DNA of 64,000 nt. It comes from Isurus oxyrinchus (lineage: Eukaryota). The notes beneath the pieces were generated by a model. The model was not told the DNA's origin, ran no database searches, and saw nothing but the letters and a program-made list of their open reading frames with translations. This document shows, piece after piece, positions 319 to 62,986 of this stretch (its first letter is position 1; every line of letters starts with the position of its first letter). A program made the translations under genes and the position numbers. Location of the stretch: NCBI GenBank assembly GCA_026770705.1, contig JANJGN010000034.1, forward strand, positions 7,192,001 to 7,256,000, read 5' to 3'.

Positions 319-345
319 AATTCGGCAAGAAAATTGGAGAATTAG
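319..345 (+). CDS. Micro-exon 1 (27 nt, phase 1-1) of coiled-coil micro-exon gene: (E)FGKKIGEL
   Basis: ttttaaaatacaag|AATTCGGCAAGAAAATTGGAGAATTAG|gtgagt. Strong donor, AAG acceptor. Extending 9 nt upstream gives EIQEFGKKIGEL, similar to exon 41352 (EIEKLNNKLLAF). Confidence 0.65.
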   Translation, partial: NSARKLEN

Positions 346-825
346 GTGAGTAATGGACTAAAGAAAATGTGGAAACATTGCTCTCTTATGGGTTCATTCT
401 GAAAAATTGTTTGCTTTCCTCATGGCAAATGGGATGTCTAGACAAAGGTTAACAGGAAATCTAATCTAACGTTAACTACTTTCATGTCACTATCAATGTC
501 AGAGACCGGGCCAGCGGCGCCAATCATGGTGATGTCCGGTAGAAGTCAGATTAACCCAGTGTGTGATCAAATATTGACAACTCGTTTATGGCGAGAACAT
601 GTATGAGTGCGACTCGGTTTGTGTGGGAGTTCGGTTTGAGGATGTGTGGAGAGGGCGGTGTTGTATATCTATAAGGTTCGATGTGTTTGATGGTGGATGT
701 TACTGATCTAGGTCAGAAATAAATTAGATCTGGTGGAGATCGATCGGGCTTTGCTAAAACGAAATATGCCTTTCAACATGTGTGTGTGGTCAGCTCTTTC
801 TGGGGTCAAGTTTCATTTTAATAGC

Positions 826-1100
826 TATCTCATGAGATGTGGGCATCGCAAGCAAGGCCCTCCTTTTTTTGCCTATTCTAATTGCCTTTGAAATGTCAGT
901 CTTGCAATACCTAACCATAGCCAATTACAGCAGATATGTTTCCCTGAACTGAAAGGGCAGAATTGATTTTATGTCCCGTTACGGAGAGGAGCTTTCAATT
1001 CATTCATTCTACAAATTGCCATGGTGGCGCTTGAACCCATGTCTCAGAGCATTTCCCTGGGACTGTGGATTACCAGTCTCGTCACAGTGTCACCATGCCT
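826..1100 (-). mobile_element. Degenerate Deu-domain tRNA SINE (SacSINE1-like), partial
   Basis: Reverse complement of the SINE tail (tgagatgtgggcatcgcaagcaaggcc) and tRNA-like head (ttgaacccatgtctcagagcatt...ctgtggattaccagt). Confidence 0.55.
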
Positions 1101-1604
1101 ATATCTTTTCGTTTGTATGAGAGCGGTTGTGGATGAAATCCACATTGTCCGATTGCATATGCATAAGATGTATTCTGGTTCCGGTATGGAAAATTCCCTT
1201 TATGAATAAGAACAATTAAACGTAAGTCAGAATCGATGATAATGTATATGAGCCAGTCCTGTCTAGGTAATGTATCTTTTAGATGGTACCACGTTTAAAC
1301 GCAGACTGGTGATGTTGAACAAGGGCAAGGCTGAGAGTGTTTATGAGCAATAAGGCCAGGAAATACACCTCAGTGGTTGTACAACACTCGGATGTATGTA
1401 AAACGCGCTATAGATATATAAGCCCTCCTTTCTACCTAGTGCGGCAATCCATAATATTTGTTTGCATCGAAATTTACATTCTCTAACATGAGGAAGGGTG
1501 CATAATTGGCGGTCAATTTGATGAGTGCCGCTATCTTCCACAGCCGTGAAAATGTACATTTAAGAAGGTAGATTCAGCTTTTGTGGAACAAGGTAAGTTT
1601 TCAG

Positions 1605-1680
1605 CCCACCACCACCCACCATCCACACCACCGCACACCCCCCCCCCCCCACCCCCACACCGGCACCCCCTGCCCCGCCC
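1605..1680. repeat. C-rich low-complexity tract
   Basis: ccaccacccacc...cccccccccccccc...tgccccgccc; explains the Pro/His-rich ORF 1583-1804. Confidence 0.85.
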
Positions 1681-2269
1681 GTTTTTATATCACGGATCTT
1701 CCATAGCCATTAATCTCACAGTTACAAAGGTATGTTCCTCGCTCAGACCTGCTTTGTGCAACTGCATCAAAGAAGTTCTACAGCTTCGGCACTGCATGTT
1801 TTAGACAACTTTCATGAATTCCATAAATTCGCCATCATTATTGTGCTTTTACTTTTACCATGGTGCAGTTATGTCCGCTATAGATAACATTGCCGTGGCA
1901 ATGCAAAAGCACATCACTATTTATTGATGATTGTTAATGTATTGGTTATTATTTATTCATAAATAGCTCCATTGAGTACAAAACCAGGCAATTTATGCTG
2001 AGCCGATAGATTTCTAATTACAAAACAACCTGAGCATCAAAACAAAAGATTCAAACATTCAGAAGCTGTTTCAAATGCTGAAGAGGAGATGCACCATCTT
2101 TTATATTCAGCGATAAAAGGCATTAAGCAGCAATACAAAATTGAAGGCTGGCGTTGTCCTCTTTGGAGCAAAGGAGCTGGAAGAGGCATCTAATAGATGT
2201 CAGCAAGGTTAATGCACATTTGGATAAGTTAGCAAAGAAAGTATCTTTGCTCGACAAGGGTGTACATCA

Positions 2270-2550
2270 GGAAGAACTACCGTTCATGTTGTTACACCGC
2301 CATGTGCAAGTGACCCTTCAGTTACAAGCCATCCTAACATATCAACATTGCACTGCACATTGCACCTAACATTGAGATATGTCGCCCTTCCTTCTCTGCC
2401 ACTGTGTTTAAATCCTGGAACCCCATTTCACAGCACTGTGAGTGTTCCTGCAATACATGGACTGCAGCGGTTCAAGGAGGCAGCACACAATTAACTTCTC
2501 AGGGGCAATCCGGATGGCCAACAACACCCAAGCCCTGTCAAATAATAAAA
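2270..2550 (+). mobile_element. 3' end of L2/Crack-type LINE
   Basis: aaatcctggaacccc...cagcactgtg...atggactgcagcggttcaaggaggcagc...ttctcaggggcaat, a tail that recurs many times in the window. Confidence 0.6.
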
Positions 2551-2559
2551 TAAACACTG

Positions 2560-4150: not shown

Positions 4151-4213
4151 AGCTTTAAGCTCCTACTGTACATTCTGCATGCCTTAAGTTTATTTTATAA
4201 TCTTCATCCACAG

Positions 4214-4228
4214 AAAAAGGATTGAAGG
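4214..4228 (+). CDS. Micro-exon 2 (15 nt): (E)KGLK
   Basis: tttattttataatcttcatccacag|AAAAAGGATTGAAGG|gtaaga; same size, phase and AAAAA start as exons 13367 and 50469. Confidence 0.75.
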
Positions 4229-7500: not shown

Positions 7501-7798
7501 GTTGAAAACAAAGAAAACTGCGGATGCTGGAAATCTAAAACAAAAACAGAATTACCTGGAAAAACTCAGTAGGTCTGGCAGCATCGGCGGAGGAGAAAAG
7601 AGTTGACGTTTCGAGTCCTCATGACCCTTCGACAGAACTTGATGCCTCATGACCCTTCGACAGAACTTGAACCTCATGACCCTTCGACAGAACTTGATCA
7701 AGTTCTGTCGAAGGGTCATGAGGACTCGAAACGTCAACTCTTTTCTCCTCCGCCGATGCTGCCAGACCTACTGAGTTTTTCCAGGTAATTCTGTTTTT
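7501..7798. mobile_element. Young palindromic Penelope-derived element with two hammerhead-like cores and 14-bp TSD
   Basis: Perfect 104-bp inverted arms (7540-7643 and 7697-7800); three tandem 26-mers cctcatgacccttcgacagaacttga; TSD gtattgacagcaga at 7487-7500 and 7799-7812. Confidence 0.9.
7701..7739 (+). ncRNA. Minimal type I hammerhead ribozyme-like motif (A6U core variant); mirror copy on - strand at 7601-7639
   Basis: AGUU-CUGUCGA-A-GGGUC-augag-GACUC-GAAA-CG-UC-AACU: helix I AGUU/AACU, helix II GGGUC/GACUC, GAAA, palindromic ACGU mini-helix III, UC cleavage site. Confidence 0.6.
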
Positions 7799-8761
7799 GT
7801 ATTGACAGCAGACATTGTTTCATTAAAGCAACGAGTGAATCAGGTGGATTTTTACAACAATCAATAATAGTTTATTGGAACCTTTACTAAGTCCAGCTTT
7901 CAGTTTCATTTTTAAATTAGTTAATACAATGGATTAGTAAATTGTATTGGTACTACATCAAATGCCCAGAACAGGCTCGAACACCTGTCGCAGTGTTTTA
8001 ATATCTGTCCCCTCTTGATTCCAACCATCTATGCACTTCAAGTAAATTTCTAAGTACGTCCCTAACATTGTGTGGGTTTTTGTTTCGTCCGCTCTTTCAT
8101 ACAATGACGCCTAGATCAACACAGCTTTCCAGGTGACAAGGTCCCCTTGAATCCCTCCAAAATCTCGTATCTCTTACGATAAATGTATTCCCTCTTTTTA
8201 TGACTGCATTACGAATGGGAATAGGATCTTCCTATGCTCCCAATCAGAACCCTTCATAAGGTTTTGCATTTGAATTCGACCACCACTCAGTCTAATCTGG
8301 TCTGAGGAAAATTAGCCAATGTAATCTTTCCTCATAAGGAAAACGTTCGAATCAGTGCAATGCTTAGGAAACGCCCTCTCTCTCCCCTCCATCACAATCA
8401 CATATTTCCTGTACTGTTGGGCCAAGAGTTTCACATGGCCTTATTAGTGTTTTATCAATAACCGCCAGCAATCCCTCACAGCTCCAACTTTTTTTTCGGC
8501 CTCGGTAATAGCAAAGTACCCTGTATAACTGGAATATCTTAGAACAACAGAAGTGCTAAATTAATGTAAGTAATACAGCATTTAGTCAGTCGACAGTGAA
8601 ATGGCATAATATAATATTCTCCGTTTAGCTCTCAGTGATGACTTTTCCCATAAGTGATTATCTCATTCAATGAATAATTTGGCACAATGCAGTTTATTCA
8701 CAATGGATAGCTGCATTTCTTCATTTCTTAATAAGGATTTTATAGAAAAGGTCATGTCAAC

Positions 8762-8900
8762 ATGAGCACTGAGATTGCAATTTTAACGTGAGCGCTGAGA
8801 ATGAAATTTTAACGTGAGCACTGAGAATGAAATTTTAACGTGAGCACTGAAGTTGTAATTTTAACGTGAGCACTGAGAATGAAATTGTAACGTGAGCGCT
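8762..8900. repeat. 26-bp minisatellite, about 5.3 copies
   Basis: Unit gtgagcactgagaatgaaattttaac; ends about 26 nt upstream of exon 8927. Confidence 0.9.
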
Positions 8901-8926
8901 TAGGTTGTTGCTTGTCTGAATTGCAG

Positions 8927-8962
8927 ATCTGAGCAAGTGCAAAGAATCTCTGAAAGCGTTTG
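8927..8962 (+). CDS. Micro-exon 3 (36 nt): (D)LSKCKESLKAF
   Basis: ttgcttgtctgaattgcag|ATCTGAGCAAG…GCGTTTG|gtgaga; LxxCxxxL paralog class. Confidence 0.85.
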
Positions 8963-9395
8963 GTGAGAGAAGTGTTTCTGAATCACGTCTAATTTTCGCC
9001 TATCTCCTCTTCAAAGAGCAATTGCTATTTGGTTCCACGGGGCATTAAATAGCTCTGTAGTGGATTGTCAGAAATCACTTGCGACTGTAATTTTGATGCT
9101 GGACCTAGTATGTCTTCGTTCTTGCCACCGAAGTTTAGATACTCTGGGGGAAAGCATGCCAGCTGAGGCCTAATTTTTGTCTTTTAAATAAAGCTGCAAC
9201 GAGTTCAAGATTACTGGGTGGAAAATCACCGTTGGTAATATGACCGAACAGGCGGCTTAGCAACCACCAATTATTATTGGTAATGTGCATGTTACTGCCT
9301 AGCTGACAATTTCAAAACAAAGAAGAATTTGCCCTACAGTAAAAACGCTTTGATTATTTCCAATTTCTTCTGGTTTGTCTTCAACTCCATAACAG

Positions 9396-9422
9396 AAGAA
9401 AAGCTCAAAGCAAGTGAGAAAG
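9396..9422 (+). CDS. Micro-exon 4 (27 nt): (E)EKLKASEK
   Basis: tttgtcttcaactccataacag|AAGAAAAGCTC…GAGAAAG|gtaatt. Confidence 0.85.
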
Positions 9423-9589
9423 GTAATTGGATTAGCAATTCATTGCATTAAGACCCAAACGGTAAATGTGTGATAATTGCTTCCTAAAGTCTTCTAGCAA
9501 ATTGAATGGTAGAAAATAACTTAGGAAGGTGGTGTCAACGTTAGAAGTTGCCTCATTCTTTGAATGGGCAAATGTACAACATACAGATT

Positions 9590-10390
9590 CGAAGCAGGTG
9601 AAGGTCAGTCAACCCCTTGAGCCTGCTCCGCAATTCAATAAAATCATAAAAACAAGTTCATCAAGTTCTGTCGAAGGGTCATGAAGACTCAAAACGTCAA
9701 CTCTTTTCTTCTCCGCCGATGCTGCCAGACCTGCTGAGTTTTTCCAGGTAATTCTGTTTTTGTTTTCAATAAAATCATAGTTGATCTGATTGTAATCTCC
9801 ACATTCACAGCTATCTCGATAACATTTCACCCCTTGCTTATCAAGAATTTATCTGCCTCTCACGATAAAGCTTTTTAAAGATTCTGCTTCCAATGAGCTG
9901 AGAGGAGGAGAATTCCAAATATTCACGACCCTCTAAGAGGGAGGGGGGAAAGCCTAATCTCTGTCTTAAATCGGTGACTCCTTGTTTTTAAATAGTGAAC
10001 CCTGACTCTAGAATCTACCATGAGGGGAAACATCCACACCACATTCATCTTGTGAAGCTAACTAATGATCTTACCTGCTTCAATCAAGCCATGCATTCCT
10101 CTTCTAAATTCCAGCTGGCACAAGCATGGTTGTCCGATTTTTCCTCTTAAAAAAACCGCCCATTTCTTCTATTAGTCGAGCAAACCTTCTCAGAAGCCTT
10201 TCTAGAGCATTTTTTAAACAATACAATAATTGTTTTTTAAACAATACAGTACAATAAATTGTACTCCAAATGTAGTCTCACCAACTGAAGCATAAGCGTT
10301 CTATTTTTTAATTCAATTGTCCTCACAATAAATGATCACATTTTCTTGTATTTCCTAATTACTTACTACACCTGTATTCTAGTCATTGTG
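9590..10390 (-). mobile_element. CR1 LINE 3' portion
   Basis: gcaggtgaaggtcagtcaaccccttgagcctgctccgcaattcaat…gaattccaaatattcacgaccctct…tactccaaatgtagtctcacc, the reverse CR1 tail and RT end. Confidence 0.7.
9649..9764 (+). mobile_element. Single-arm copy of the young Penelope/hammerhead element with 15-bp TSD
   Basis: tcaagttctgtcgaagggtcatgaagactcaaaacgtcaactc…ctgtttttgt; TSD ttcaataaaatcata at 9634-9648 and 9765-9779. Confidence 0.85.
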
Positions 10391-11421
10391 ATTCATAGAT
10401 ATAGGAAAACTATTGCCACCTTTGGGAGATTTCTAAATGAAGAGGCGATAAAGAGAATTTTAATACTGTCTCCAAAGAACGCCTTAAGAGTGTCCAATAT
10501 CTGTAATTCGCTATCACATTCTGGCAAGTTGAATTTAAGAGACGGTTTAAAAAGAATCAAATGAGCGGAATTGCAATCAGATATTTTTCTCAAGGGCTGC
10601 CTGTACCTGGAGTGGGAGGTCGTTCTACTGCTCCCTAATTGCTGGCATTATCCCATTTGGACCAATGTAGTTTTTTCTTTGCTGCACATTCTGCATTTAC
10701 TTTTTGCTTGCACCATAGTTTGAAATGAGTGATACTAATATACGTGCCTAGTTTATACACCAATCAATTTTACTGCCCATTGACTGCAATGGAACATCAC
10801 CTTAGCCAATGTGTATAATTAGCAACAAATTTGGCAATCAGCAGTCCGTTTTACACCATCGATCAAAATTTAATCACAACCATGTTATGTTCGCTTTATA
10901 AAGTACAAAGATCGCCTGAAAGTTGACGACATAAGAATGTAGCACGTGTTCTGCATCAGAGTGACATCAATCATCACCCTGTCCCACACTATGATTCGCC
11001 GGAAAATAGTAAATGTACTTGACAATTCCAAATGAAGTATCGAAATATGCATACTACACACAGTTGCATAACATTTGGTGAAAAGCAACTGGCGTTGCTG
11101 CCAAGTGCACTATGATTGATTCAAGCTCCACAGGAGCCATATGCAACATTACCTAACCTAGATTCAAACATGGAGAGTTATAATAGGAAAGCATAAATGT
11201 CACTTTAATCTGCATTTGTGGTTATACGAGTCACTTTAGGCAGATGTGATGAATTAACATTTCAGCGAGGCAATGTGTGAACTGTGTAACATAAGTGCTT
11301 CTGATGGGAAAAAAAAAATTAACATGTGTTGTCATGTATTAGAAAGGATTGGGAAGGAATAAATACAGTAAAATACCTTTTGAAGCTGAAGTGTTATCAA
11401 TGTTCCTCCTCTACATTGCAG

Positions 11422-11457
11422 AACTAAGCGACTGTCAAAACGGCTTGAAAGAGTTAG
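11422..11457 (+). CDS. Micro-exon 5 (36 nt): (E)LSDCQNGLKEL
   Basis: ttcctcctctacattgcag|AACTAAGCGACTGT…GAGTTAG|gtcaga; close to exon 56960 (ELSDCLE). Confidence 0.85.
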
Positions 11458-11769
11458 GTCAGAAAAACTCGTTTGCTATCTCACTATCGTGCTTTCCATT
11501 CAATTGGACAAGGTTTGAAAGATATTACACAATCCCCGAAGCAGAGTTCTATTCTACAAGTGGAACTGTTGCAATGACATTTAGCCTTGAAATAGGCAAT
11601 GCACGCATGTGTCCCCGGCGGTAGTAATCACTGTCCATAATACCGACATGGGAAATAATTAATGGTGCATTAAATAAAATTCACATAAAGATGTTGCACT
11701 AACTTCAATCTATTGTACAAAAATTCATCTTTGGTGCAGGAGCAAAACTGGACAGCAGCTGGACAGTGG

Positions 11770-12075
11770 ATCCTTAGGCTGCACCTTACAAACCTATAAC
11801 CACTACCATCTAGAAGGGCAGGGGAAGCAGATACAAGGGAGCAACACGACCTGGAATTACCACTCCAAGTCGCTCATGTCCCGAGTCGTTGAATATATTG
11901 CCGCTCCTTCACTGGGTCAAAATCCTGGATCTCCATCCCTAACAACACTCTCGGTACACCTACACCACAAGCCTGCTGCGGTTAAAGCGGGCAGCTCAGA
12001 ATAACCTTCTCATGGGCAAATAATGGTGGGTAATAAATGCTGCCTGAGCCAGCAAAGACCACATCCCATGCCATT
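11770..12075 (+). mobile_element. L2/Crack-type LINE 3' end
   Basis: ctaccatctagaagggcagggg…gggtcaaaatcctgga…taataaatgctgcctgagccagc…cacatcccatg. Confidence 0.65.
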
Positions 12076-12662
12076 TCTGAGCAGTAGAAAGTAATTGACT
12101 ACATCTGACAATGCTAAACAGCACAAACAGGCACACTGTACCTCCTTTATTATCTTTGCCAGTTTGAAGGTCGTATTCTAAAATGCAAAACGTTTACCAA
12201 CACAATATTGATTACTAGTTTTTCACTGTTGAAGAAAATCAAGATTCATCACATTCTCAAAGGATGGACAATTATTGCGTTCTTGACGCCATCAGAACAG
12301 GGATTTTCACTCAATGCTAATCTATGTCCCACGATGTTGATTATGATATCTAACTTTGTTAATTACAAATAATGCTCTGTTTGGAAAAGAGGGAAATGTC
12401 GACAGGTGGTGCTGATAAATAACAAAAATTTTAGGTGCCTGCCGATGGCACTGCGTTAAAAAGATATTGTTGAAAGTTAGCCATTTGGGAACTGCAATTC
12501 AAGCTTCATGCTGGAGCCGATCTCAATGAATAAAATTCTTAAATCAAAATTGTCTTTTGTCTGGCACCATTTGGATAAATGCGGTTAACAGATGCAAGGA
12601 TGGAGAGAGATTTTCCTAGATTTCCAGTGCAGCAAGGGTTTTCTTCTGACTTTGACAGTAAG

Positions 12663-12674
12663 CTCGATTGAGAG
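12663..12674 (+). CDS. Candidate 12-nt micro-exon (A)RLR
   Basis: ttttcttctgactttgacagtaag|CTCGATTGAGAG|gtaagg. Strong donor; needs the distal AAG acceptor (the CAG would give 16 nt, out of frame). 36+12+15=63 nt restores the 21-aa period. Confidence 0.3.
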
Positions 12675-12969
12675 GTAAGGAGGAATTTCTCAATGTATTT
12701 TCTTGTTTTCCACATGAATTGACACCATGGATCCACAAACAACAAATGAACAATATTGTGTACATTTCTCCTAATCTTCCGCTTATTTTAAAAGATGCAA
12801 TGTGTGTCCATTCAAAGGCCAAGGTTCTGCTAATGAATATATATATAGTCTCTAGCCTTTGGCAGATCAAATGAGCTAAACACATATTGTGCGCTATTCA
12901 GTTAAAGAAACACATCAGGGGCCGTAATTCCCTAGTTGATTCCCAAGGACAAGTCCTTGATCAATCAGA

Positions 12970-13210
12970 GTTGACCTCTGTGATTTGAATATAAACTAAA
13001 CTTGGCAGTTAACTGTAACTTGCTGGTGCATTGTCCGTGACAACATTTCGACCAATCATAGACTATTTGGCAACGAATCAGAACTCTCCTCTAAAGCAGT
13101 GTGAATTTCTGTTCCCTTTACAATTCTGTCTTCTTGTAAATTCTCCTGATGACTGCAAGATGGAAAGCGGTGGCAACATCGCTCTTTTCTCAGCAATACT
13201 CAAGTTTATT
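12970..13210 (+). mobile_element. Penelope-like element 3'/pLTR fragment (second family) with degenerate hammerhead motif
   Basis: ccaatcatagactatttggcaacgaatcagaactct…tcCTGATGActgcaagatgGAAAgc…tcttttctcagcaatact; related pieces at 43180-43325, 52180-52320 and 59810-59970. Confidence 0.55.
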
Positions 13211-13366
13211 TTTTCTAGCAAACCACGATATGTTCCATATTCTGATTTAATTTTTAGTTACTCATACTGAGCAATGTTAGAGTAAGTCCAAATTAGTTTC
13301 GTGTTCTTAGCTAACGATCCTGTACACACTCAACTCATGGTTATCCATCATTAATCTGCTTTACAG

Positions 13367-13381
13367 AAAAAGTAAAGAATG
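13367..13381 (+). CDS. Micro-exon 6 (15 nt): (E)KVKN
   Basis: catcattaatctgctttacag|AAAAAGTAAAGAATG|gtaggt. Confidence 0.75.
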
Positions 13382-14579
13382 GTAGGTGCATGCATATTTT
13401 GGAACCCGAAATTCGCAGTGTCAAAAAAAAAAACAAATGAAGTTCTGGTAGAAATGGCTTTGTATTGTAATTGATCCAGGTGAATGAGGGTTACCATTGA
13501 CAATAAACTCAACTGGCTCGGAATGCCAGAACGCTTAGCTCAACATATCCATATGCAAAGCCTGCTACATAATCTCCAAGGGATAATTTAGAATTACAAT
13601 GTGTAAATGCTCGCTCCAAAGGATAAGGGCCAGGTTAGCAATGCTGGAACATTTTGACATAATAGACTAAAGAACAGCCGGTTTGATTTAAATCTCAGTC
13701 ATCACCGTGAATATTGATTCCCTCCTGCACCAGCTCCTAGTGGCTCTAATATGTTACATCTATAAGATGCACCAAGGCAACCCAACAGTGGGCCTCTACA
13801 ACACCTTCCAAAACAGCCAATTTTTCCATCTAGAATAACAAGGGCAGCAAACTGTTTGGAACAAACCACTTGCAATTTCCGCCTGAGGTCATATGTCGTG
13901 CTGATTTGAAATGCATCACTGTTCCTTCCTCATCACCACCTTGAAAGCAAAGAGTTATCAGCACCATGGGCGTGTCTGTGCCACATGGACTGCAACAACT
14001 CATGGCAATAATTCGCCAGAAATTTCTGAACTGGAACTGCCATCAATGCTGGTCTTGACAACAACATCCGATGTCCATTCATGTCCTCACATTCCATAAA
14101 TATGTTAGCACTTCCAGGCTATAACCCCTGGGTGATTGCATTCCTGCCACATTGATCTCTTGCACTTCCAAGATTGCACATTCTTTGCCCACTTTCAGAG
14201 CCTGTGCAAATATTCCTCTGTGCCATTTCTCTGGAGTTTCATCCCTGAACGTTTCCTTCAATTCATTTCCCGTCTTTTAAGTCACTACTTCTTAATTACG
14301 TTTAACAGAATGCAAATAACAATTTGTCAGTGCAACACTTTTTCTCACTTAATGTTGAATTTTGATTCCAATAAAGGCGCAATGTTCAAGTAAATATTTA
14401 CTTATTTTGCCTTCACTACATTCAGTACAAGAACATAGGTCTTTTTAAACAGATTTGGGAAAGGAGACATTTGTGCCACAATTACGTACAGTTGTTTCAA
14501 TTCGATGAGCAACGTCGTGAAGCTTAAGTTGTAACGAAACACTAAGTACCTTTCTTCAAAACATTCTTTCCATTTTGCC

Positions 14580-15880
14580 GTACAGACTAGCAGGGGCGAC
14601 TTTGCATCGACCTGGATACCGGAAACGGCAATGGCACACACATGAATATCGACTCTTGAGTGCCCCATACTAGCATCTGTGGGTTGTGCCAAAGTTGGGA
14701 CAGCTACCTCAGACCCTAGTCAAGAACAGTCCAACACAGTCATACCACCGAAGCATCTGTTAAAACCAATGCCCCAGACAAAACCATCACGATAGCTCAA
14801 TATGTCCTGAGTCAGCAGCAGGCGGCATAGTGGCATACAGTTTACAGGTATTTGCACTGGGAGGCCCTCAATATTGATTCCTGACCCCAGAATGTTCAAT
14901 GACAAAAAGTGAATCATGGGAAATGATAAATCTTGTTGATTGTCGCCGGCTACTCCTTGAGCTCTCCCTTAGCTGATGAACTTCTGCTCATCCATTGTTA
15001 AGACCAGTGGAAGAAGCACTGAGTGTGGCAAGATCACAGAATGCACTTTGGGCAGTAACTTCAATGCCCATTGCCAAGAGTGGCTTGACTGCATTACTGA
15101 CCGAGATGGTGGAGTCCAAAAGAACAGTGAGGTTGCATTGTGCCTGCGGTAGAAAATTAGGGAAAAACAACAGCAAAACCCCTACTTAACCTCCTTCTCA
15201 TCAATCTCACTATCGCAGATACATTTGCCCATGACTGTATTGGTAACAATAACCATCTCACAGTCCTCATGGAGACAAAGCACTGTTTGAATACTGATGA
15301 TATCCTCGATTATGCTGTGTGACATTGCCACTGTGCTAAAGTGGATAGATTACCAATTGACGATGCAACTCAAAGCGGGGCATCACGAGGTGTAGTGGAG
15401 CATCAGCAGCAGCAAAATTCTTTTCAGCCACCCGATATTACCCTTGACACAGCATATCCCCTATTCTACCATTAGTAACAAGTGACGCCCAGGTTCAATG
15501 ATGAGTGCAGCACGATATGGCAGAAGTAGTGCCATGCTTACCTAATAATGAGTTGCCGACCCAGTGAAGGTACAAAACAGGAGTGCTTGCATGCAATCCA
15601 GCAGATGCAAGATGTGATAAACACAGCTAAGGGGTAGAACCAACGTTTCTGAAGTAAGATCTGAAATCCTGTCACACAGAATCGTGAATGGTCCTGGGCA
15701 ATTAAGCTACAGACTGGAGATGGAGGCTCCCCAATCATTCCATCCTCAGTGTTTGGGATCCCGTTACAACAGTGCAAAAGATAAGACTCAAGCATTGTCC
15801 AATATCTTCCAGAATTGCCGAATGGCTGATCCGTTTTGGCCACTTCCTGAGGGTCCCAGCATCACATGTGCCATTCTTCA
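14580..15880 (+). mobile_element. Decayed L2/Crack-type LINE, APE endonuclease region
   Basis: Remnants such as VEEALSVARSQNALW, PGSM/PWFN-like and AKDKTQALSNIFQNCR; homologous to 45480-46700. Confidence 0.65.
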
Positions 15881-16159
15881 ACCAAATCTATGGAGCCTAT
15901 TGGTTGGTTATTGGCGAATTCATATCCACGATGCTAAGCGGTATGCTGCTCATTTGCTGCTTTTTCGCTGATTAGTCCACAGCTTAGTTTTTGGAGGGTG
16001 CATTCTCGGAAAGCTGCAGCATTGTTTGCCTCTCTGCAGAAGTGCATGATGTGTGTGTAATGCGGAGGTAGGCTACACAAGGGGCCTGGCCTGTGCTGAA
16101 CCTGATTAGCAAGAAGCAACTTGGTTATGGTATTTTATACCCCAGATCGAAAGATGGAC

Positions 16160-18860
16160 TATCAAACATAGACGCATGAGGAGCAGGAGTAGGGGATCCA
16201 GCCCTTCGAACCTGTTCCAAAATTTTGAACAGCATGGTAGATTGGATTATCATCATATTTCAACTTTGCCATCGGACAACTTAGCACATGACGTCCTTTT
16301 CTGTCAAACGTCTTTCTAACTGCCTTGCATAAATTCAATAACTCAGTCTCCATTGCATACTGTGGAAGAAAATTCCACCACTAAACATTACTTGAGCGGA
16401 AGAATTTCTCATTTCCGTCTTAAGTTATAGACATCTTATTCTTAAACAGTGCTTCCTGCTCCTAGTCTCTCCCACAATTGGAAACATCCTCTTGCTATGT
16501 ACTCTAACAAGTCCACTCAGGGTCTCAGATATTTCTCTATGATCAAAGTTCACTTGTTTTAATCCCAATCGGTAAAGGCCAATCGTGTTCAACGTTTCTG
16601 CATAAGATCAACCCTTCATCCCAGAAATGAGTCGGGTCAACATTATCTGAACTGTTTCTAATGTAATCATATTTGACTCTTCAATTAAGGCCAAAACTCG
16701 AAACAACATTACAGATGTGGCCTCATCAGATGCATTAAACGTCCGTATTGTTGTACTCAATCCCCCTTGTAATAATTGCCAACATTCCATTTGCCTTCCG
16801 AATCACTTGCTCTAATTGAATTACAATGATTTGTTTGTCATTCGCGTCACAGGACACTCAAATCCCTCTGTGTCAGCGAGTTCTGCAATCTCTCGCAATG
16901 TATTTTTTATATTGCTTTTCTACTCTTCCTGCCATAGTGTACAAGTTCACATTTTTCGACATTATACTGATCTACCACATCTTTGTCCACTCACTGAAAA
17001 TGCCGATGTCCCTTTGCAAGCCCTCTAGCTCCTCTTGAAAACTTACTTTCTCACCCATCATGGTATCATGGGCAAATTTATCACCCTACATTTGTTAGCT
17101 TCGTCCAAATCACTCACGCAGCTTGTAAGTAGTAGCGGATCCGGCAGTAATGCTTGTGGCATTCAGTAGTTTTTATCTGGGAAAACAAATACGATCGAAT
17201 TACCCCTTCTACTTCCTGTTTGCACACCAATCCATGATCCAAGCTAATATGACACACCCCATTACATGTAATGGTATCTATTCCAGCAACTTTTGATATG
17301 GCAATTTAGCAAATGCCTTCTGGAAATCCAAGTACACCAAATCCACAGGTGCCCCTTTGTCCACCTTGTTTGTTACGACCTCATACAACTTCAATGATTT
17401 AGTTCAACACGATTTCCCTCTCACAAAAACAAGTTGACAATACCTGATTAAATTAGGACGTCATATTTATCTTGCTATAACGTCCTTAATAATGAATTCC
17501 AGCAATGTCACTCTGACGGGTGTTAGGCTAACTTTCCGGGTTTCTGTCTTCCAATCTCTTGAACAGCATTACATTATTTTTTCCCCAATCCAGTGGAGCC
17601 CTTGAATAATCCAAGGGATTTTGGAAGACTATAATGAATACACCTACGGTCACTTCAGACCCAGAGGGTTCAAGCAATCTGCTCTTGGGAACCTATCAGC
17701 CTTTACATCGAATAGATTTCCAAACAATTTTTCCCTAGTGATGGTGATTATTTTAATTTATTCCCTCCCGTTCATCTCTTCATTTTCAAGTATATTTTGT
17801 AAGTTCCCCTAACCTTCAGCATGAATGTACAAACAAAATACCTATCCATCGCCTCTGCCATTTCCATGTTTACCATCATCAGTTCTCCAGACTCTCTCTA
17901 TAAATGACGAAGGCTATCTTCAGTTACACTTTTCAAATGTATACACTTGTAGAAATTCATACTCTCTGCTTTCATATAATCAGTAAGATTTCACCAAATT
18001 TCTATTTCTCCCTCATTATTTGCTTTCTTTCTTTATTTTAGTTAGTATAATTATTTTTTCCCCTGGTTCATAATATTTGACCAATCATCATACGTAATAC
18101 TAATCTTTGAAATTTTGTACTGCTTTTTTCAGTCTGATACTATCTTTAGCTTACTTATGCAGCCTTGCATCATTATTCCTTCTCAAAGATCATTTATTTC
18201 ACAGTGGATATATCTTCTCCTGAGAGCTATTAAATGCCTTCTTAAATGTCTGCGCTGCATTTTATACATAGTTTCCCATTTGAGGTTAGTTTGGTTTGTT
18301 TTGTATTCTTCTAATTACCTTTATTCGGGTTCACAATACTAATCTTAATTCACATTTCCTTCCTGCAAATTGGACATGAAATTCTATCATGTCATGATCG
18401 TTGTCACTGACTTGCCCCTTTACAATGAGATGTTTCATTAGCCTTGTGTCATTTCCCATCACCAGGTCCAGGATAGCCTGCTCCCTGGCTGGCCCTAGGA
18501 TGAACTTGCTCTAAGAAATTGTCATAAATGCAATTTCTGAAGTGATGCTCCAGGACAGCATCTGCAAATCTGCTTCACCCAATCTACATGTACACTAAAC
18601 TATCCCATGAGCATTGAAGTAGCATTCCTGCACGTCTCATTTATTTCTTCCTGCACACCCTGTACTACCTTGTAACCTCAGCTAGGGTATCTATTAACTT
18701 ATTCCAATATTGACATCTAAACTTTACTACTTCTTTTCTACGCCCTAATAAATTATACATCTTGCTCTTTCCTGCCACCGTCATCTCCCACAGCAGTCCT
18801 AATAACATCGTGCATTAAAACACCTACCCAACAACATTCTGTTCACTTCTTATCTTTTCT
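16160..18860 (-). mobile_element. Long decayed CR1 LINE (3' tail, RT, part of endonuclease)
   Basis: ggagcaggagtagggg…cagcccttcgaacctgttcc tail; aaatgccttctggaaatccaagtacac = reverse of VYLDFQKAF. Confidence 0.8.
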
Positions 18861-19619
18861 GAAGGGCACAAGAGCCCTGTTGGTGACTTCTCGTGTTTCA
18901 TATTCCATCAACAAAATCAAGTGTTTGTGTGCGTGTCAGGACGGGGTGTGGGAGGGGGTGAGATGAGTTGCGTGTGTTGTTGAAAGAGGGTTCCAGTTAT
19001 GACGTTCATTGATGCATTGTATTCAGTGTCATGAACTGTCTGTTTGTGAGCTGATGATGTTTCTCAAACAGATGTACAGTACTCTGCTGCACAGTATGAC
19101 AGGGCAAGTAGTGATATCCGGAATTCTCTAGCAGCAGCACTCCACGTAGATCTGAGAATTTATGTTCGTAGATTATTTCTGCTTCTGATTCTTTCTGTTG
19201 CTTTCTTCAGTTGTACCAAAATGATAAAGCAGCAGTCAGAGCCATTCTCAAGCAGCTTGGGATCATGCTTTAGTCCCGGGGAACACATGTAAATATACAA
19301 TTTCGGGGCATTGATATTGTGGAGCAGAAGACACTGGATATAGATTGACTAGGATTTGACGTGAGAGGCCATGTGCTGCAGTAGACATGCAAAGTGGTAA
19401 GTGTTTGGTTAGGTTCCGGTTAAGGGTGCAGAAAGATGGAACTTGGGTAAATAGCACAAGCATCAAAGGCATTGGATTATGTTTAGGGAATTCGTTGTCA
19501 GTAGATCACTTGTATACATGTTACAGAGGGTTGTAGCGAGCACTGAGCCGTAGTCTGTTGACCAGACTTGGCCATGCACCTCTTACCACGAAATATCAAG
19601 AAACGGCTGAAGGCAATAG

Positions 19620-21120: not shown

Positions 21121-21140
21121 TATACATACTATCTCTTTGT

Positions 21141-21257
21141 ACTGGGCTTGTAACCCCAAGATCAAGAGTTCAAATCTTACAATGGCAAACTATGAAACAA
21201 AGTAACTTCATCTGAATAGGAACAGATGGAAACGTGTTTGTACTCGAAAGAGTTACA
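21141..21257 (+). mobile_element. Young 5'-truncated tRNA-Thr(UGU)-derived SINE with 10-bp TSD
   Basis: TSD atctctttgt at 21131-21140 and 21258-21267. Head actgggcttgtaaccccaagatcaagagttcaaatctt resembles the tRNA-Thr anticodon arm plus B box. The 3' part has hairpins. Confidence 0.7.
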
Positions 21258-21642
21258 ATCTCTTTGTCTCCATTTGATCAACTGTCCCTTGTTATTTTGT
21301 GGATGCAAGATCAAGCTTTTTTTCTCTAGTTTTCCCGTGGATGGACTTGGAACGTTTTATTCAGATAAAAAAACAGAATAATTTGCAGCGATCCTATTAA
21401 TTATCTCTATGTTTAATAACTGTGTCTAAGTCTCTCCTGTCAGCTCTGTGGAAATATCTGTCCGTACACAATTAAGTTCGATATCCCTTCAACTCATTAA
21501 ATAATATGACAGAACACGATTGCTTTCCAATCGGTTCTCAAAGTTTATCATAAGAAAGTGAAATTTTGAATTGATTAAGATATGAGGCAGTACATTGCTT
21601 TTAAATCTTACATGCTGTGTAAATCCGTAATCTGTATTGCAG

Positions 21643-21678
21643 ATCTGAAAGGTTGCCTGGAAGCTCTAAATGATACAG
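21643..21678 (+). CDS. Micro-exon 7 (36 nt): (D)LKGCLEALNDT
   Basis: ccgtaatctgtattgcag|ATCTGAAAGGTTGC…GATACAG|gtaagc. Confidence 0.85.
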
Positions 21679-21789
21679 GTAAGCAAATCATGTTGCACAC
21701 ATATATATTTTCCTTTGAGCTATTCCCCTTCAACTAATCAAATCTCAGGCTGCATGTAATACGGAATTCGATCAATAGTGTCTGCTTTA

Positions 21790-24651: not shown

Positions 24652-24949
24652 GGCTGCACTGGCATTGCTTCAACCTAGTGCCGGGAGTGCTACCTCCTTA
24701 CCGAGTGGATCAAATCGCCCATTCCAAAGAACCCAAAGCCCCCTCAGTACTCGCACATTAATGTTTGGAGCCACTCGCCATCTAGGTTGAGACATTGGTG
24801 TGCACTGCACATACAAAACAAGTGAAGCATACTCAGGCCATTAACACAAAATCAAAATTGATAAAATTTTGTCACTCAAAAAAAGTCAACATAATAATGT
24901 AAGGTGTTAATGGTCACACCAGTAAACAAACTAACAAAACATGGCAGAA

Positions 24950-27281: not shown

Positions 27282-27308
27282 AAGACAAACTCAAAGTAAA
27301 GGAAACAG
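27282..27308 (+). CDS. Micro-exon 8 (27 nt): (E)DKLKVKET
   Basis: tttcttgtttactttccaccctttaacag|AAGACAAACTC…GAAACAG|gtaata. Confidence 0.85.
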
Positions 27309-27862: not shown

Positions 27863-27898
27863 AGTTGAAAAAATGCCAAGAAGCTTTAAAGGGTGCAG
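27863..27898 (+). CDS. Micro-exon 9 (36 nt): (E)LKKCQEALKGA
   Basis: ttcccctttctacattccag|AGTTGAAAAAATGC…GGTGCAG|gtggag; shares a 22-nt identical core with exon 60315. Confidence 0.85.
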
Positions 27899-29710: not shown

Positions 29711-29737
29711 AGGAATTTCTTGCTGAAAAAGATAAAG
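29711..29737 (+). CDS. Micro-exon 10 (27 nt): (E)EFLAEKDK
   Basis: ggtttctttttactatttaacag|AGGAATTTCTT…GATAAAG|gtaatc. Confidence 0.85.
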
Positions 29738-39124: not shown

Positions 39125-39151
39125 AATTTGAACAATTGGAGCAGAAGTGCA
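39125..39151 (+). CDS. Micro-exon 11 (27 nt): (E)FEQLEQKC
   Basis: gccgtttttcttag|AATTTGAACAATTGGAGCAGAAGTGCA|gtaagt. Confidence 0.75.
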
Positions 39152-40650: not shown

Positions 40651-40677
40651 AAAAAGATACCGAGAAAAAAGATGCAG
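40651..40677 (+). CDS. Micro-exon 12 (27 nt): (K)KDTEKKDA
   Basis: ttatttttcttctcttttttgcag|AAAAAGATACC…GATGCAG|gtcttg. Very strong acceptor, weak donor; joins in frame to EIEKLNNKL. Confidence 0.65.
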
Positions 40678-41351: not shown

Positions 41352-41387
41352 AGATAGAAAAACTCAACAACAAACTACTGGCATTCG
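41352..41387 (+). CDS. Micro-exon 13 (36 nt, Cys-less): (E)IEKLNNKLLAF
   Basis: ttcttattgcattaattttcag|AGATAGAAAAACTC…GCATTCG|gtgaga; ends AF|gtgaga like exon 8927. Confidence 0.85.
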
Positions 41388-50468: not shown

Positions 50469-50483
50469 AAAAACTGAAGAAAG
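50469..50483 (+). CDS. Micro-exon 14 (15 nt): (E)KLKK
   Basis: tttcatgtttctgatctcattacag|AAAAACTGAAGAAAG|gtaagt. Confidence 0.8.
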
Positions 50484-56959: not shown

Positions 56960-56995
56960 AATTAAGCGACTGCCTGGAAATTGCAAAAGGCTTAG
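56960..56995 (+). CDS. Micro-exon 15 (36 nt): (E)LSDCLEIAKGL
   Basis: gctgactttgcgttttttcttcttacattacag|AATTAAGCGACTGC…GGCTTAG|gtgcgt; branch-like ctgac upstream. Confidence 0.85.
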
Positions 56996-58406: not shown

Positions 58407-58433
58407 AAGAAAAGCAAAAAGCGAAGGCGTCAG
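58407..58433 (+). CDS. Micro-exon 16 (27 nt): (E)EKQKAKAS
   Basis: ttactttatattatgtgctataacag|AAGAAAAGCAAAAAGCG…TCAG|gtagct; ataacag|AAGAAAAGC identical to exon 9396. Confidence 0.8.
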
Positions 58434-60314: not shown

Positions 60315-60350
60315 AGCTGCTTAAATGCCAAGAAGCTTTAAAGGAATTAG
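60315..60350 (+). CDS. Micro-exon 17 (36 nt): (E)LLKCQEALKEL
   Basis: attattttctaatattgcag|AGCTGCTTAAATGC…GAATTAG|gtgagg. Confidence 0.9.
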
Positions 60351-61009
60351 GTGAGGCTTGTGTTATTTTTTTGTTTAACATGCTTTTGCCAGTAATAATA
60401 GGCATATATTTATCCATCAGCATGAGCAAAAATAAAACGTTTTTATCTGTGTTCACATGAAACTGTTTATGTAAAAAATCTGCTTTGGCTATCAAGGAGC
60501 AAATAGCGACCAACTTGTTCTATGTGTTTCTTTTTTTGCAGATTCTCTAACTTAATTGCCAGCCCAAACTCATTCCAAGGCAATTAGGGATGAGCAATAA
60601 ATTCTGGCCAATCCAGCAATGCCCAAATCCCATGTATGAATACTTAAAAATTGCATGCCACCAAATGCAGAAGTTGTCATCGACCTGAATAAACGAGCAA
60701 CATTCTAGGATTTAATTATTGAAGCTATATATTGTTCTAAAAAATATTGCATGACACATTTAATTTCAAAAGTATCTTACAGATGAATTAGTGAGCTTAG
60801 TCTGATATGTTTTGTTGCATATATGTCTACATGCCTCTATGAATATTATCCCAAAGAAGAAACATTCTGCTGAGTGTGTGATCAGTCAAATTCACAAATC
60901 AAACAAATAGCTGAAACTGAGCAGAACGTACATTAATGAACATTGTCTGGGGGAGAGGGTGCTGTTTTGGGGCTATTATTCGCTTGTAAACCGGTGTCTC
61001 AGGCTTATT

Positions 61010-61322
61010 CTGTGTTCAAATCTCCAATGGCGGCTAACAGAATTTAAATTCAGTAATTAAATAAAAATGGAATTTAAATTTACTGACCATGAAACTGTTA
61101 TGTGCTGTCCGAAAACTTCATCTGGTTTACTAGCGTCCTTTAGGGTATCAAACCTACCATTCTTGTCTGGCCTGACCTACATCTGACTGCAGACCCACAA
61201 CAATGTGGTTGACTCTCCACTGAAGCCTGCAGTGGCCTTGCAATCCATTCAGTTCAAGGTCAATTAGGGATAGGCAACAAATGATGGCCTTGCCAGCGAC
61301 GCCCATGTCCCAGGAAGAATTG
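61010..61322 (+). mobile_element. Deu-domain tRNA SINE
   Basis: gttcaaatctcc…tgaccatgaaact…tctggcctgacctacatctgactgcagacccacaacaatgtggttgactct…caattagggataggcaacaaatgatggccttgccagcgacgccc. Confidence 0.8.
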
Positions 61323-62723
61323 AATGATATTGAAAAATCAATGTCAGTTGCCTAGGCAATCAAATCAAAATCCTGTTCAGCAGCTTTTAAAACGTGTCAA
61401 TATGGCATTTGCGCCACAAAGAACCAATTGTATTGACGAAATTGTCGAAGCCACTAAGGAGGGTAATCTGCCAAATGGATTTACATTGATCTGTGGGTAA
61501 TGCTAGTTTCCTGGATGAGGCATTTATCAGGGATGTTTAAACCAACACAATATATGGTAAATAATTATTTCAGCACTGGATACAATTTACTCTGCGTAGT
61601 TGTCAATAAATTACAGTAAATTAAATGTTTTGGGGCATATTACACTGAAAAATGTGACCCAACCCGGCGGCGAACACGAGTCCAGAAATATAGAATCCCC
61701 TATCATAGGAGGGGTCATAGTGCCTTTGCCAATCTATTGCGATTGCTATCCACATCTTCCAACATGATTGTAGTTTTGATAATAACCACGACTATAGTCC
61801 TCCCCTTCAAGTATTTATCGAAAGGTTTTTTTAAATGTTAGTATTGAGTTTCATTCCAACGGCCTTTATGGTCTGGCTTGCATTTCTAACCATAGCATTT
61901 TACAGCACCGTAACGTACTCAGACCTCCCATCTGCTTAATTCACCAATTGCCTTATTTATGTGCAGCTTGGTTCTCGAACCTCTGGCGAATGTATTCAAA
62001 TTCTATCATTATATTCAACATTTATGTCATATTAACCACTATCACCACCAGAGCTGATCACATGCACAAAGCCCCACAACCTCAGCACCCAACTCCATAC
62101 CCATCCCTGGCGAAATAATCTGATTGTGCACCTCAAATTTCGAGATCTAATGCATTATGGATGCATGGGATTAAGCTGCTTTTTTTTAAGGCTGCAGAGC
62201 CATGATGGGCCGAAGACCCTCGCCCATTAACATACGGAGGAATTTCCGGAAAATGCAGCGAGCCTTTCAGAAGCCCATTGACACCAGCGTGACCATAAAA
62301 ACCCACCACCATAAAATTCCGCTCATATATCTTTTTATGTCCACATGATCCTACATTTTTAATCTTTTCCACTGTAAGAACGGTCATAGCTTTTCTTTAA
62401 CTCTTCAAATTCCTGAAATCACTCCACCCTAACGCTACTGCGTTAAAACTCCTCTGCATCCTTTTCAACCCCTCGATATTCTTCCAAAACTTTGCGGTGC
62501 CGAATTAGACACGCTGCACTTGCTGCGGCTAATCAGCAATTCATTAAGTTTTTTTTCCTCTATCATAATGCTTTCCAGAGTGCTAGAGTACAGAAAGAAA
62601 TCGATCTTGGATGGTGGCGAAGACAAAATCTATACAAATGACACCTCTGTTATGAGACCAGGCGAACCATTGTTTCCACATTTTGCAATACAACGCATGG
62701 ATCGATAAACGGCTAATCGGGCC

Positions 62724-62780
62724 CCAAACATTTGGCAGCGCCAAACATTTGGCAGCGCCAAACATTTGGCAGGGCCAAAC
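62724..62780. repeat. 17-bp tandem repeat x3.3 with internal inverted repeat
   Basis: ccaaacatttggcagcg repeated; contains gccaaa-ca-tttggc. Confidence 0.9.
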
Positions 62781-62959
62781 CAGACAGGTTTTTGACGCCT
62801 TATGTGCCATAATCTTCAAATAGTAATGAACCTGGTGAAATGTTTCTATTGATATCATTTTGAGACCCTTTTTCCTTCGGTCTGTCTTCTGGAAGAAAGT
62901 GCCCACAGAACACAAAATTCTTTCAATTATTTATTCTATATAATTTTACTCCTTGACAG

Positions 62960-62986
62960 AAGATCAGCTGAAAGGAAAAGAAAAAG
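62960..62986 (+). CDS. Micro-exon 18 (27 nt): (E)DQLKGKEK
   Basis: ttctatataattttactccttgacag|AAGATCAGCTG…GAAAAAG|gtgagt. Confidence 0.9.

Follow-up and report, generated by a model that had tools for sequence, protein, structure and literature searches.

Micro-exons on an Isurus oxyrinchus contig belong to a megabase coiled-coil array that ends in a B30.2 exon

The window examined here is a stretch of 64,000 nucleotides (nt) from the Isurus oxyrinchus genome (4.98 Gb), positions 7192001-7256000 of contig JANJGN010000034.1 (C34). It had been predicted to hold at least 18 micro-exons of a gene that encodes a coiled coil. All 18 segments were verified: each lies on the plus strand in phase 1-1, with AG before it and GT after it, and together seven of 36 nt, eight of 27 nt and three of 15 nt give 513 nt in a phase-1 frame that is open throughout. 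The coding density of the window, claimed to be under 1%, is 0.82%, and purines make up 70% of the exons as against 49% of the window as a whole. Several of the segments score weakly as splice sites. The class motifs are looser than first written, since Cys is present in six of the seven 36-nt exons and E[E/D]xLKxxEK is exact in only two of the eight 27-nt exons. A scan of the window for further exons gave no convincing one beyond the 18; a 21-nt candidate at window position 35511 was discarded for its poor donor and lack of coil character.

The whole window lies inside a gene, here called gene B, that spans about 6.45-7.50 Mb of C34. We used a scan that combines generic splice-site weights with coiled-coil residue weights and leaves exon length free. 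Because the residue weights were set by hand after K/E-rich exons had been seen, the minus strand serves as the control. Across 464 kb around the window, at lengths of 12-63 nt, the scan returned 154 candidates on the plus strand and 0 on the minus strand. Extending it to 1.04 Mb (C34:6455840-7496400; lengths of 9-63 nt; score >10) gave 264 plus-strand and 2 minus-strand candidates, and 252 of the 264 are 15, 21, 27 or 36 nt long. Lower thresholds gave 314 versus 14 (score >8) and 355 versus 49 (score >6), a net of about 300 exons, while profiles built from the exon classes found 293 versus 1. With additions by homology, the exon list of gene B holds 305 entries (140 of 27 nt, 130 of 36 nt, 17 of 15 nt, 14 of 21 nt and 4 others) separated by a median intron of 1.9 kb, so that about 9 kb of exon lies within 1,040 kb. 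Some exons are missed because the scan demands a final G; one is the window exon at 39125, which ends in A. The 18 exons first noticed are real, yet they amount to only about 6% of the gene. That gene B is a functional micro-exon gene of the chondrichthyan coil + B30.2 family described below is very probable.

Within gene B, 138 of 148 homologous positions are intact, and internally duplicated blocks lie at 7.01-7.17 Mb. Two otherwise intact micro-exons have a GC donor (C34:6461090 and C34:7386090). Six decayed copies have lost an acceptor or donor while their codons stay open (C34:6487992, 6491722, 6810158, 6856179, 7399325 and 7401414). Outside C34, the pattern of the 36-nt exons was matched at C9:1000717 (+), C9:2040076 (+) and C19:4924464 (+), where a control pattern gave 18 matches; the two C9 matches are identical and 1.04 Mb apart, and the C9 and C19 matches may mark another micro-exon gene pair or be due to chance.

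A paralog, gene A, lies about 1.03 Mb upstream. All 18 window exons keep their AG and GT in gene A, with no indel or stop. The exons are identical at 472 of 513 positions (92.0%), compared to 8607 of 10212 (84.3%) for flanking intron (Fisher p = 4e-7). The original prediction had proposed that real exons should be conserved above flanking intron, and they are, though in a paralog rather than an ortholog. By codon position, the window exons are identical to gene A at 162/171 first, 152/171 second and 158/171 third positions. Second positions are thus the least kept and all are kept better than intron, which points to splice-enhancer constraint combined with loose protein constraint. Among the gene B exons that have an aligned stretch in gene A, 72 of 73 are intact there. 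In the reverse direction, 59 of 62 gene A exons have an intact best counterpart in gene B, the exceptions being a GC donor, a doubtful gene A candidate and a TAA-bearing 30-nt exon at C34:7484226. Over 616 codons, the coil exons of the two genes differ by 0.097 nonsynonymous (dN) and 0.15 synonymous (dS) substitutions per site, a ratio of 0.65. The coil exons are under purifying selection.

Downstream of the window, the array runs to a B30.2 (PRY-SPRY) exon that is open over 173 codons. It matches the Pfam SPRY family (PF00622) with 46.5 bits against a cut-off of 26.3; Pfam PRY gives no match, yet the PRY part of the exon aligns to BTN3A1. The best sequence matches in the PDB are BTN3A1 (E 3.7e-20), TRIM58, BTN3A3 and TRIM21. 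A predicted model (mean predicted local distance difference test, pLDDT, 72.7) resembles the B30.2 domains of TRIM11, BTN3A1 and TRIM7 with a template-modelling (TM) score of about 0.7 (Foldseek E 3e-11). By both its SPRY profile and its fold, then, the encoded domain belongs with the B30.2/PRY-SPRY domain proteins. The dN/dS of this exon between genes B and A is 0.45, and a tree places all 13 substitutions on the gene B branch (0.079 versus 0 on the gene A branch). Five related B30.2 exons are present on C34: that of gene B, those of gene A (91% identical) and gene C (56%), and those of genes D and E on the minus strand (45% and 44%). Each of the five is preceded by a 27-nt exon, which carries Trp in four cases; we take this exon to be a butyrophilin-like detail. 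With two more on C21, the genome holds seven. Micro-exons were seen in the samples taken for genes C and D. Genes D (minus) and C (plus) appear to stand head to head, with their 5' ends in the interval C34:3.87-4.16 Mb.

Judged from its sequence, gene B is a derived tandem copy of gene A. The two share a 22-kb upstream region (6433690-6455835 in gene B, 4827827-4850373 in gene A), after which position 6455840 in gene B matches 5091193 in gene A. Thus, 241 kb of gene A, with dozens of micro-exons, is absent from gene B, and modules have been lost as well as gained by internal duplication. Scanning 442 kb of the approximately 1,530 kb of gene A gave 107 plus-strand and 7 minus-strand candidates. 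By extrapolation, gene A would have about 345 exons in all, or about 440 when its sparse 5' part is treated separately. Of the two genes, A looks the more complete. Shortly before its B30.2 exon, gene B has the 30-nt exon already mentioned, which carries an in-frame TAA where gene A has GAA. Its splice sites are intact and their scores are similar in both genes, so that inclusion of this exon would end the gene B product before B30.2. The coil of gene B is maintained, but the gene reaches B30.2 only if the stop-bearing exon is skipped or if the TAA is an allele or an assembly error.

The micro-exons follow a heptad code. In the 36-nt class, hydrophobic residues occupy position 2 in 86% of exons, position 5 in 96%, position 9 in 91% and position 12 in 58%, and the residue at position 5 is Cys in 76 exons out of 130. 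Among the 140 exons of the 27-nt class, 89% have a hydrophobic residue at position 4 and 97 have Lys at position 7. A 36-nt exon and a 27-nt exon add up to 21 residues, or three heptads, with Leu, Ile or Val at a and with Cys, Leu and Lys at the three d positions, in support of the 36+27 split of the original prediction. Of the 304 transitions in the exon list, 196 alternate from 36 to 27 nt or from 27 to 36 nt. When 306 listed exons are joined, they encode 3,047 residues free of stops, with a hydrophobic period of 3.50 and 0.1% Pro, as expected of the coiled coil that had been proposed; the scan excludes stops by design, and the list omits the stop-bearing exon. The joined product has 115 Cys, and 53 of 114 Cys spacings equal 21. 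The upper bound on its length as a rod is about 450 nm.

We also predicted the structure of two copies of residues 395-520 of a relative from the chimaera Callorhinchus. The prediction is an in-register parallel dimer (pLDDT 82) with contacts that include Cys444-Cys444 and Cys465-Cys465. Its dimer score is 0.34 against 0.00 for the best control, with 100% contact agreement between runs. Among microbial test cases, 21 of 30 one-chain pairs and none of 23 single chains reach the mark of 0.32; the eukaryotic figures are 17 of 29 pairs (7 of 16 in animals; 1 of 7 where no older solved relative exists) and none of 30 single chains. Since pairs that lack such a relative seldom reach the mark, resemblance to coiled coils of known structure may account for the pass. 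The predicted dimer is a marginal pass, and it applies to a chimaera relative rather than to gene B.

The closest named single-domain matches all come from cartilaginous fishes (Chiloscyllium, Narcine, Leucoraja, Scyliorhinus, Cetorhinus, Hemiscyllium and Callorhinchus), which supports, as far as close matches go, the claim that the gene is lineage-specific. The claim that the protein is unrecognised does not hold, given that the family is already present among RefSeq models, where it is misnamed and unstudied. All of these relatives are predicted database models. In the 11 that were scanned, SPRY is the only Pfam family. In a midpoint-rooted tree of 40 B30.2 domains, whose rows were picked from similarity matches to the query, 17 coil-only rows form one side of a branch with 100/100 support, apart from 10 BTN rows, 10 TRIM rows and 3 unlabelled rows; by this grouping gene B falls outside the sampled butyrophilins. 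For individual paralogs, clear orthologs persist in both sharks and rays. The module of 12 plus 9 residues occurs 11 times in the 1,697-amino-acid (aa) model from Callorhinchus (shuffled mean 0.11) and 4 times in the 945-aa model from Scyliorhinus (0.06); among the short models, three have one module each and one has none, and two turtle controls gave 0 and 1. Tree position and module together place gene B in this unnamed chondrichthyan coil-only B30.2 clade, whose members include XP_042192744.1 (the 1,697-aa Callorhinchus model, named 'nuclear-pore anchor-like'), XP_038671249.1 (Scyliorhinus, 945 aa), XP_069797409.1 and XP_069797411.1 (Narcine), XP_055510696.1 (Leucoraja) and GCC29436.1 (Chiloscyllium). 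They resemble gene B in having SPRY as their only Pfam family and, where a coil is present, the 12+9 module; they differ from it in being far shorter and in carrying misleading automatic names (TRIM39-like, A33-like, BTN-like).

Database isoforms of the relatives differ by single blocks of 9, 7 or 6 residues in 6 of 10 comparisons, the Trp exon being among these blocks; three of the remaining comparisons have no internal difference and one has a 16-residue N-terminal change. A length ruler based on strict pairwise exon skipping is unsupported, as the isoforms differ by single blocks. The proposed tunability of length is clear in evolution, from the 241-kb deletion and the internal duplications, while for splicing the isoforms are indirect evidence only. 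A homolog search for longer proteins with the single B30.2 domain returned none, and a B30.2 profile search returned 40 matches, mostly to ordinary TRIM and BTN proteins. When eight relatives were searched against genes A and B by tblastn, which misses micro-exons because they are too short, the strong matches were to B30.2 exons only, bar one repeat-like match. In that case, residues 61-120 in the N-terminal portion of XP_038668997.1 align with a repeat-like open reading frame (ORF) in an intron at C34:7490005 (E 1e-7), which suggests a mis-built gene model. A shark skin proteome (PMC10707392) has an 'A33-like' entry, but no link from it to the family could be made.

The two family members on C21, at 89.7 and 91.3 Mb, lie between matches to major histocompatibility complex (MHC) class II (79.7 and 80.8 Mb) and most matches to class I (93.6-100.3 Mb). 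MHC class I and II matches are mainly on C21, whereas gene B is on C34. SPRY exons are also clustered in large numbers at C21:82-118 Mb, where most of the 151 SPRY matches fall; butyrophilin IgC-type exons and MHC class I genes are interspersed among them, and class II is adjacent.

At its 5' end, the array of gene B opens with a block of 21-nt exons, each one heptad long. The best candidate for the first coding exon is a tentative 30-nt exon, identical at 29 of 30 positions in genes A and B, in which an ATG stands three codons ahead of a phase-1 donor; a DNA search found this exon only in genes A and B. Motif scans upstream of both genes gave no immunoglobulin (Ig), RING or B-box exon. Pfam searches of 108 ORFs from the interval that separates the first micro-exon from the gene upstream (44 of at least 70 aa for gene B and 64 of at least 75 aa for gene A, with ORFs that cross the locus ends cut) gave two matches below cut-off, neither relevant, and no Ig domain. 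As a positive control, the same method detects a nearby IgV exon. By a simple hydrophobicity rule, no leader or signal exon candidate is common to genes A and B, and the strong donor at C34:6440476, considered for a leader exon, gives no conserved reading. Matches to butyrophilin IgC-type domains were found on C21, C2 and other contigs, but none, among the best candidates only, in C34 2.7-7.6 Mb. The original prediction placed terminal domains on both sides of the window and proposed that the flanks be inspected: the C-terminal domain is there, in the B30.2 exon 240 kb downstream, whereas upstream no N-terminal domain and no Ig, signal or leader exon was found.

Table 1. Micro-exons of the window and landmark exons of gene B. 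Positions are those of the window unless prefixed C34; the paralog is gene A.
Feature	Position	Strand	Remark
27-nt micro-exon, phase 1-1, weak acceptor score	319..345	+	paralog copy intact, 24/27 identical
15-nt micro-exon	4214..4228	+	paralog copy intact, 13/15 identical
36-nt micro-exon, Cys at heptad d	8927..8962	+	paralog copy intact, 32/36 identical
27-nt micro-exon	9396..9422	+	paralog copy intact, 23/27 identical
36-nt micro-exon, Cys at d	11422..11457	+	paralog copy intact, 34/36 identical
15-nt micro-exon	13367..13381	+	paralog copy intact, 14/15 identical
36-nt micro-exon, Cys at d	21643..21678	+	paralog copy intact, 35/36 identical
27-nt micro-exon	27282..27308	+	paralog copy intact, 26/27 identical
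36-nt micro-exon, Cys at d	27863..27898	+	paralog copy intact, 34/36 identical
27-nt micro-exon	29711..29737	+	paralog copy intact, 26/27 identical
27-nt micro-exon, last base A	39125..39151	+	paralog copy intact, 26/27 identical
27-nt micro-exon, weak donor, strong acceptor	40651..40677	+	paralog copy intact, 25/27 identical
36-nt micro-exon, Leu replaces Cys at d	41352..41387	+	paralog copy intact, 31/36 identical
15-nt micro-exon	50469..50483	+	paralog copy intact, 15/15 identical
36-nt micro-exon, Cys at d	56960..56995	+	paralog copy intact, 33/36 identical
27-nt micro-exon	58407..58433	+	paralog copy intact, 21/27 identical
36-nt micro-exon, Cys at d	60315..60350	+	paralog copy intact, 36/36 identical
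27-nt micro-exon	62960..62986	+	paralog copy intact, 24/27 identical
Tentative 30-nt ATG exon	C34:6452560-6452589	+	may be the first coding exon
Block of 21-nt one-heptad exons	C34:6459146-6528923	+	opens the array
Stop-bearing 30-nt exon	C34:7484226-7484255	+	in-frame TAA where gene A has GAA
27-nt Trp exon	C34:7495783-7495809	+	last micro-exon of the array
B30.2/PRY-SPRY exon	C34:7496442-7496962	+	about 630 nt past the Trp exon

Several further features were noted in and around the array. A tandem repeat (26 nt, 5.3 copies) occupies 8759-8897 of the window and stops 30 nt ahead of the exon at 8927; other short tandem repeats lie at 7617-7698 (27 nt, 3 copies), 62724-62780 (17 nt, 3.4 copies) and 58-105 (24 nt, 2 copies). 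Four contig sets guessed to be RNA were compared with window 8500-28400 and four with the 3' end of gene E (6 different runs in all); they matched repeats and gave no exon joint among the matches listed. For the B30.2 exon region, the 14 data sets listed included none known to be RNA, 6 being of unknown kind and 8 being guessed-RNA sets that share almost no sequence words with it. Neither result is evidence for or against splicing. Intronic positions 9664-9766 and 21139-21258 are covered by many short contigs from all four guessed-RNA runs, as expected of abundant interspersed repeats. The nearby IgV exon, at C34:7513514, lies 17 kb past the B30.2 exon of gene B (Pfam V-set E 2.7e-10) and presumably resembles nectin/PVR. 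Its copy following gene A (C34:6424280) has stops and a frameshift, and the duplicated unit thus ends near C34:6433500. Its place 3' of B30.2, together with the broken state of the copy that follows gene A, led us to reject this IgV exon as the N-terminus of the gene. In one examined stretch, a 501-aa minus-strand ORF has no Pfam match. Farther downstream of gene B, 19 samples of 8 kb (C34 7.53-8.6 Mb) yielded nothing.

The closest precedents for this design are the butyrophilin and BG genes, which the original prediction had rightly named as kin. With them gene B shares a tail of small symmetric heptad exons, including 21-nt exons at the 5' end. Chicken BG tails are reported to be dimeric and to consist of 13-36 exons of 21 or 24 nt whose number varies between genes, and a soluble BG-derived 'zipper protein' is reported to control actin-myosin interaction in the brush border (PMC4046983). 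BG proteins are like gene B in their long heptad tail in tiny exons and unlike it in having an IgV domain and a transmembrane region; no B30.2 domain is described for them in the available part of that source (PMC4046983). Gene B, in turn, has about 300 exons, mainly of 36 and 27 nt, a B30.2 domain, and no Ig exon that we could find. Butyrophilins such as BTN3A1 and BTN2A1 have heptad repeats followed by B30.2, and BTN3A1 is the best PDB sequence match, but gene B has no Ig or transmembrane exon found and about 430 heptads' worth of residues rather than a few. The phosphoantigen pocket residues of BTN3A are not conserved: His351/Tyr352, which we take to be the correct BTN3A1 numbering for the aligned positions, align to Ser45/Trp46. 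In BTN3A1, this His-Tyr contacts hydroxymethylbutenyl pyrophosphate, HMBPP (PMC10533412). The TRIM proteins with PRY-SPRY (TRIM11, TRIM7, TRIM21 and TRIM58) also combine a coiled coil with a B30.2 domain of similar fold; no RING or B-box N-terminal to the coil was found here, whether by motif scans, in the 108 ORFs or in the 11 relatives, and the dimer predicted here is parallel whereas the TRIM coiled coil is antiparallel (PMC6599887). By analogy, then, gene B may work like a BG or butyrophilin tail, but it belongs neither to the butyrophilins, having no Ig exon found and a separate clade, nor to the TRIMs, having no RING or B-box found. Another protein of this kind is presumably enterophilin-1 of guinea pig, which we take to be soluble, with a long leucine zipper, a B30.2 domain at its C-terminus and nothing in the way of an ectodomain. 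Enterophilin-1 is mammalian and about 65 kDa in size. An interaction of enterophilin-1 with SNX1 has been cited (PMC13749957).

Taken together, gene B is best read as a butyrophilin/BG-type heptad-exon tail without an ectodomain, scaled about tenfold. We give about even chances to a reading in which the 18 segments, as conserved micro-exons, form the central part of a 1.04-Mb array ending in B30.2 that splices into a coiled-coil rod of about 3,000 residues, acting as a cytoplasmic spacer or tether. About 300 micro-exons and the B30.2 exon would be spliced into one megabase mRNA, and the product would be a parallel two-chain coiled coil with Cys facing Cys, up to about 450 nm long and with frequent register breaks. 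Given that no Ig or leader exon was found, the protein is likely to be cytosolic, where the rod could act as the spacer or tether and the B30.2 domain at its tip could bind a partner. In a role like that of the BG 'zipper protein', it may serve to space organelles or parts of the cytoskeleton, and the gene may have arisen from a butyrophilin/TRIM-type tail of the MHC region. Because all exons are symmetric, exons can be duplicated, deleted or skipped without a frameshift, which would explain the rapid change in length. Several points weigh against this reading. The exon chain is a prediction from the genome, and the zipper-like role is drawn by analogy. For the start of the gene there is only a tentative ATG exon, and N-terminal exons may exist upstream of the B30.2 exon of gene C. 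At 0.65, the coil dN/dS points to weak constraint, and the 72 intact exon pairs include internal duplicates, which are not independent. Only 75 of the 129 intervals from one 36-nt exon to the next preserve the heptad register, although missed exons inflate the number of breaks. The database models are much shorter, at 175-1,697 aa. Signal-like hydrophobic starts are present in the models from Leucoraja and Hemiscyllium and in the 1,697-aa model from Callorhinchus, and regular Cys pairs would suit an oxidising compartment; two of the three starts, however, end in splice-acceptor-like residues and may be intron read-through by the predictor, and relatives with several isoforms start without a signal. 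Finally, the TAA exon and the B30.2 substitutions on the gene B branch suggest that gene B may make a rod without B30.2.

This last point leads to a possible, though rather unlikely, account in which gene B, though a genuine coil gene, is a truncated derivative, its stop exon being normally included to give either a rod without B30.2 or nonsense-mediated decay, with gene A supplying the full-length protein. Such an account is compatible with the family-level reading, and the similar splice scores around TAA and GAA, the missing 241 kb of gene A and the several decayed exon copies speak for it along with the B30.2 changes. Yet skipping of the stop-bearing exon would leave the frame intact, since that exon is symmetric, B30.2 has stayed open with an overall dN/dS of 0.45, the exons downstream of the stop keep their splice sites and the coil exons of gene B are clearly maintained; the TAA is, moreover, one base in one assembly. 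The 115 Cys, most often 21 residues apart and facing each other in the predicted dimer of the relative, would also fit a protein that is secreted or reaches an oxidising compartment, in which Cys at d forms an interchain disulfide ladder in a structural fibre (of reproductive secretions, egg case or sperm structures, for example). The signal-like starts fit this as well, but we consider it improbable in view of their doubtful nature, the lack of a convincing leader exon upstream of gene A or B and the cytosolic position of B30.2 in butyrophilins (PMC4046983).

An immune sensor or decoy is likewise unlikely. In that case, a RING-less TRIM-like protein would use its rod to space B30.2 domains for reading a pathogen lattice or for pairing with TRIM or butyrophilin partners, as the similarity of B30.2 to BTN3A and TRIM domains, the tandem duplication and turnover, the two members in the MHC region and the many replacement changes in the coil might suggest. 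However, dN/dS is below 1 in coil and B30.2 alike, seven members were found as against well over 100 other SPRY exons on C21, orthologs are clear across sharks and rays, and a megabase transcription unit would fit a slow structural product better than a fast response. We consider it very unlikely that gene B is a true butyrophilin with a giant cytoplasmic tail and with Ig and transmembrane exons further upstream. Although the 21-nt phase-1 heptad exons, the 27-nt Trp exon and B30.2 together resemble the exon design of BG and butyrophilins, and the 5' ends of genes C, D and E lie outside the stretches read, Ig domains are absent from the 108 upstream ORFs and the 11 relatives, the best candidates for IgC-type matches include none in C34 2.7-7.6 Mb, and the nearby IgV exon lies 3' of B30.2. 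That the segments are chance AG-GT matches or dead repeats is extremely improbable: several splice scores are weak and a few copies have decayed, but the bias in strand and length, the 18 of 18 exons intact in the paralog and the matching modules in database proteins all contradict it.

The design principle is known. In the titles and abstract openings searched, we could find no description of the scale, of the 36+27 module, of the lack of an ectodomain or of the chondrichthyan clade; genome-paper supplements, which lay outside that search, may mention the family. Human titin, to which there is no homology and which is compared here by exon count only, is stated to have the largest number of exons, 363, with 114 kb of exon in 283 kb (PMC12198301); gene B has about 300 and gene A, by extrapolation, about 345-440. 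If the chain is spliced as predicted, this would be among the most exon-rich genes known, made almost wholly of exons of 15-36 nt at a coding density below 1%. It would also be a natural system for testing how exon definition copes with hundreds of micro-exons in a row along a megabase transcript. It exposes a blind spot of annotation, as databases hold the family only as shorter, misnamed models. The design of butyrophilin, BG and TRIM tails is extended here to an ectodomain-free rod ten times longer, and the members in the MHC region bear on the origin of the family. Genes A and B are a clean case of in-frame modular evolution, with a 241-kb deletion, internal duplications and the possible loss of a terminal domain. 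More tentatively, and at somewhat less than even chances, cartilaginous fishes may have kept, since before the split of sharks and chimaeras, a giant filament class of their own: parallel coiled coils with Cys ladders, up to half a micrometre or more in length, with B30.2 at the tip and with 300-440 micro-exons in each megabase gene. Gene A would then equal or pass titin in exon number, and rod length would be reset by deletion and duplication of exon blocks and by exon skipping.

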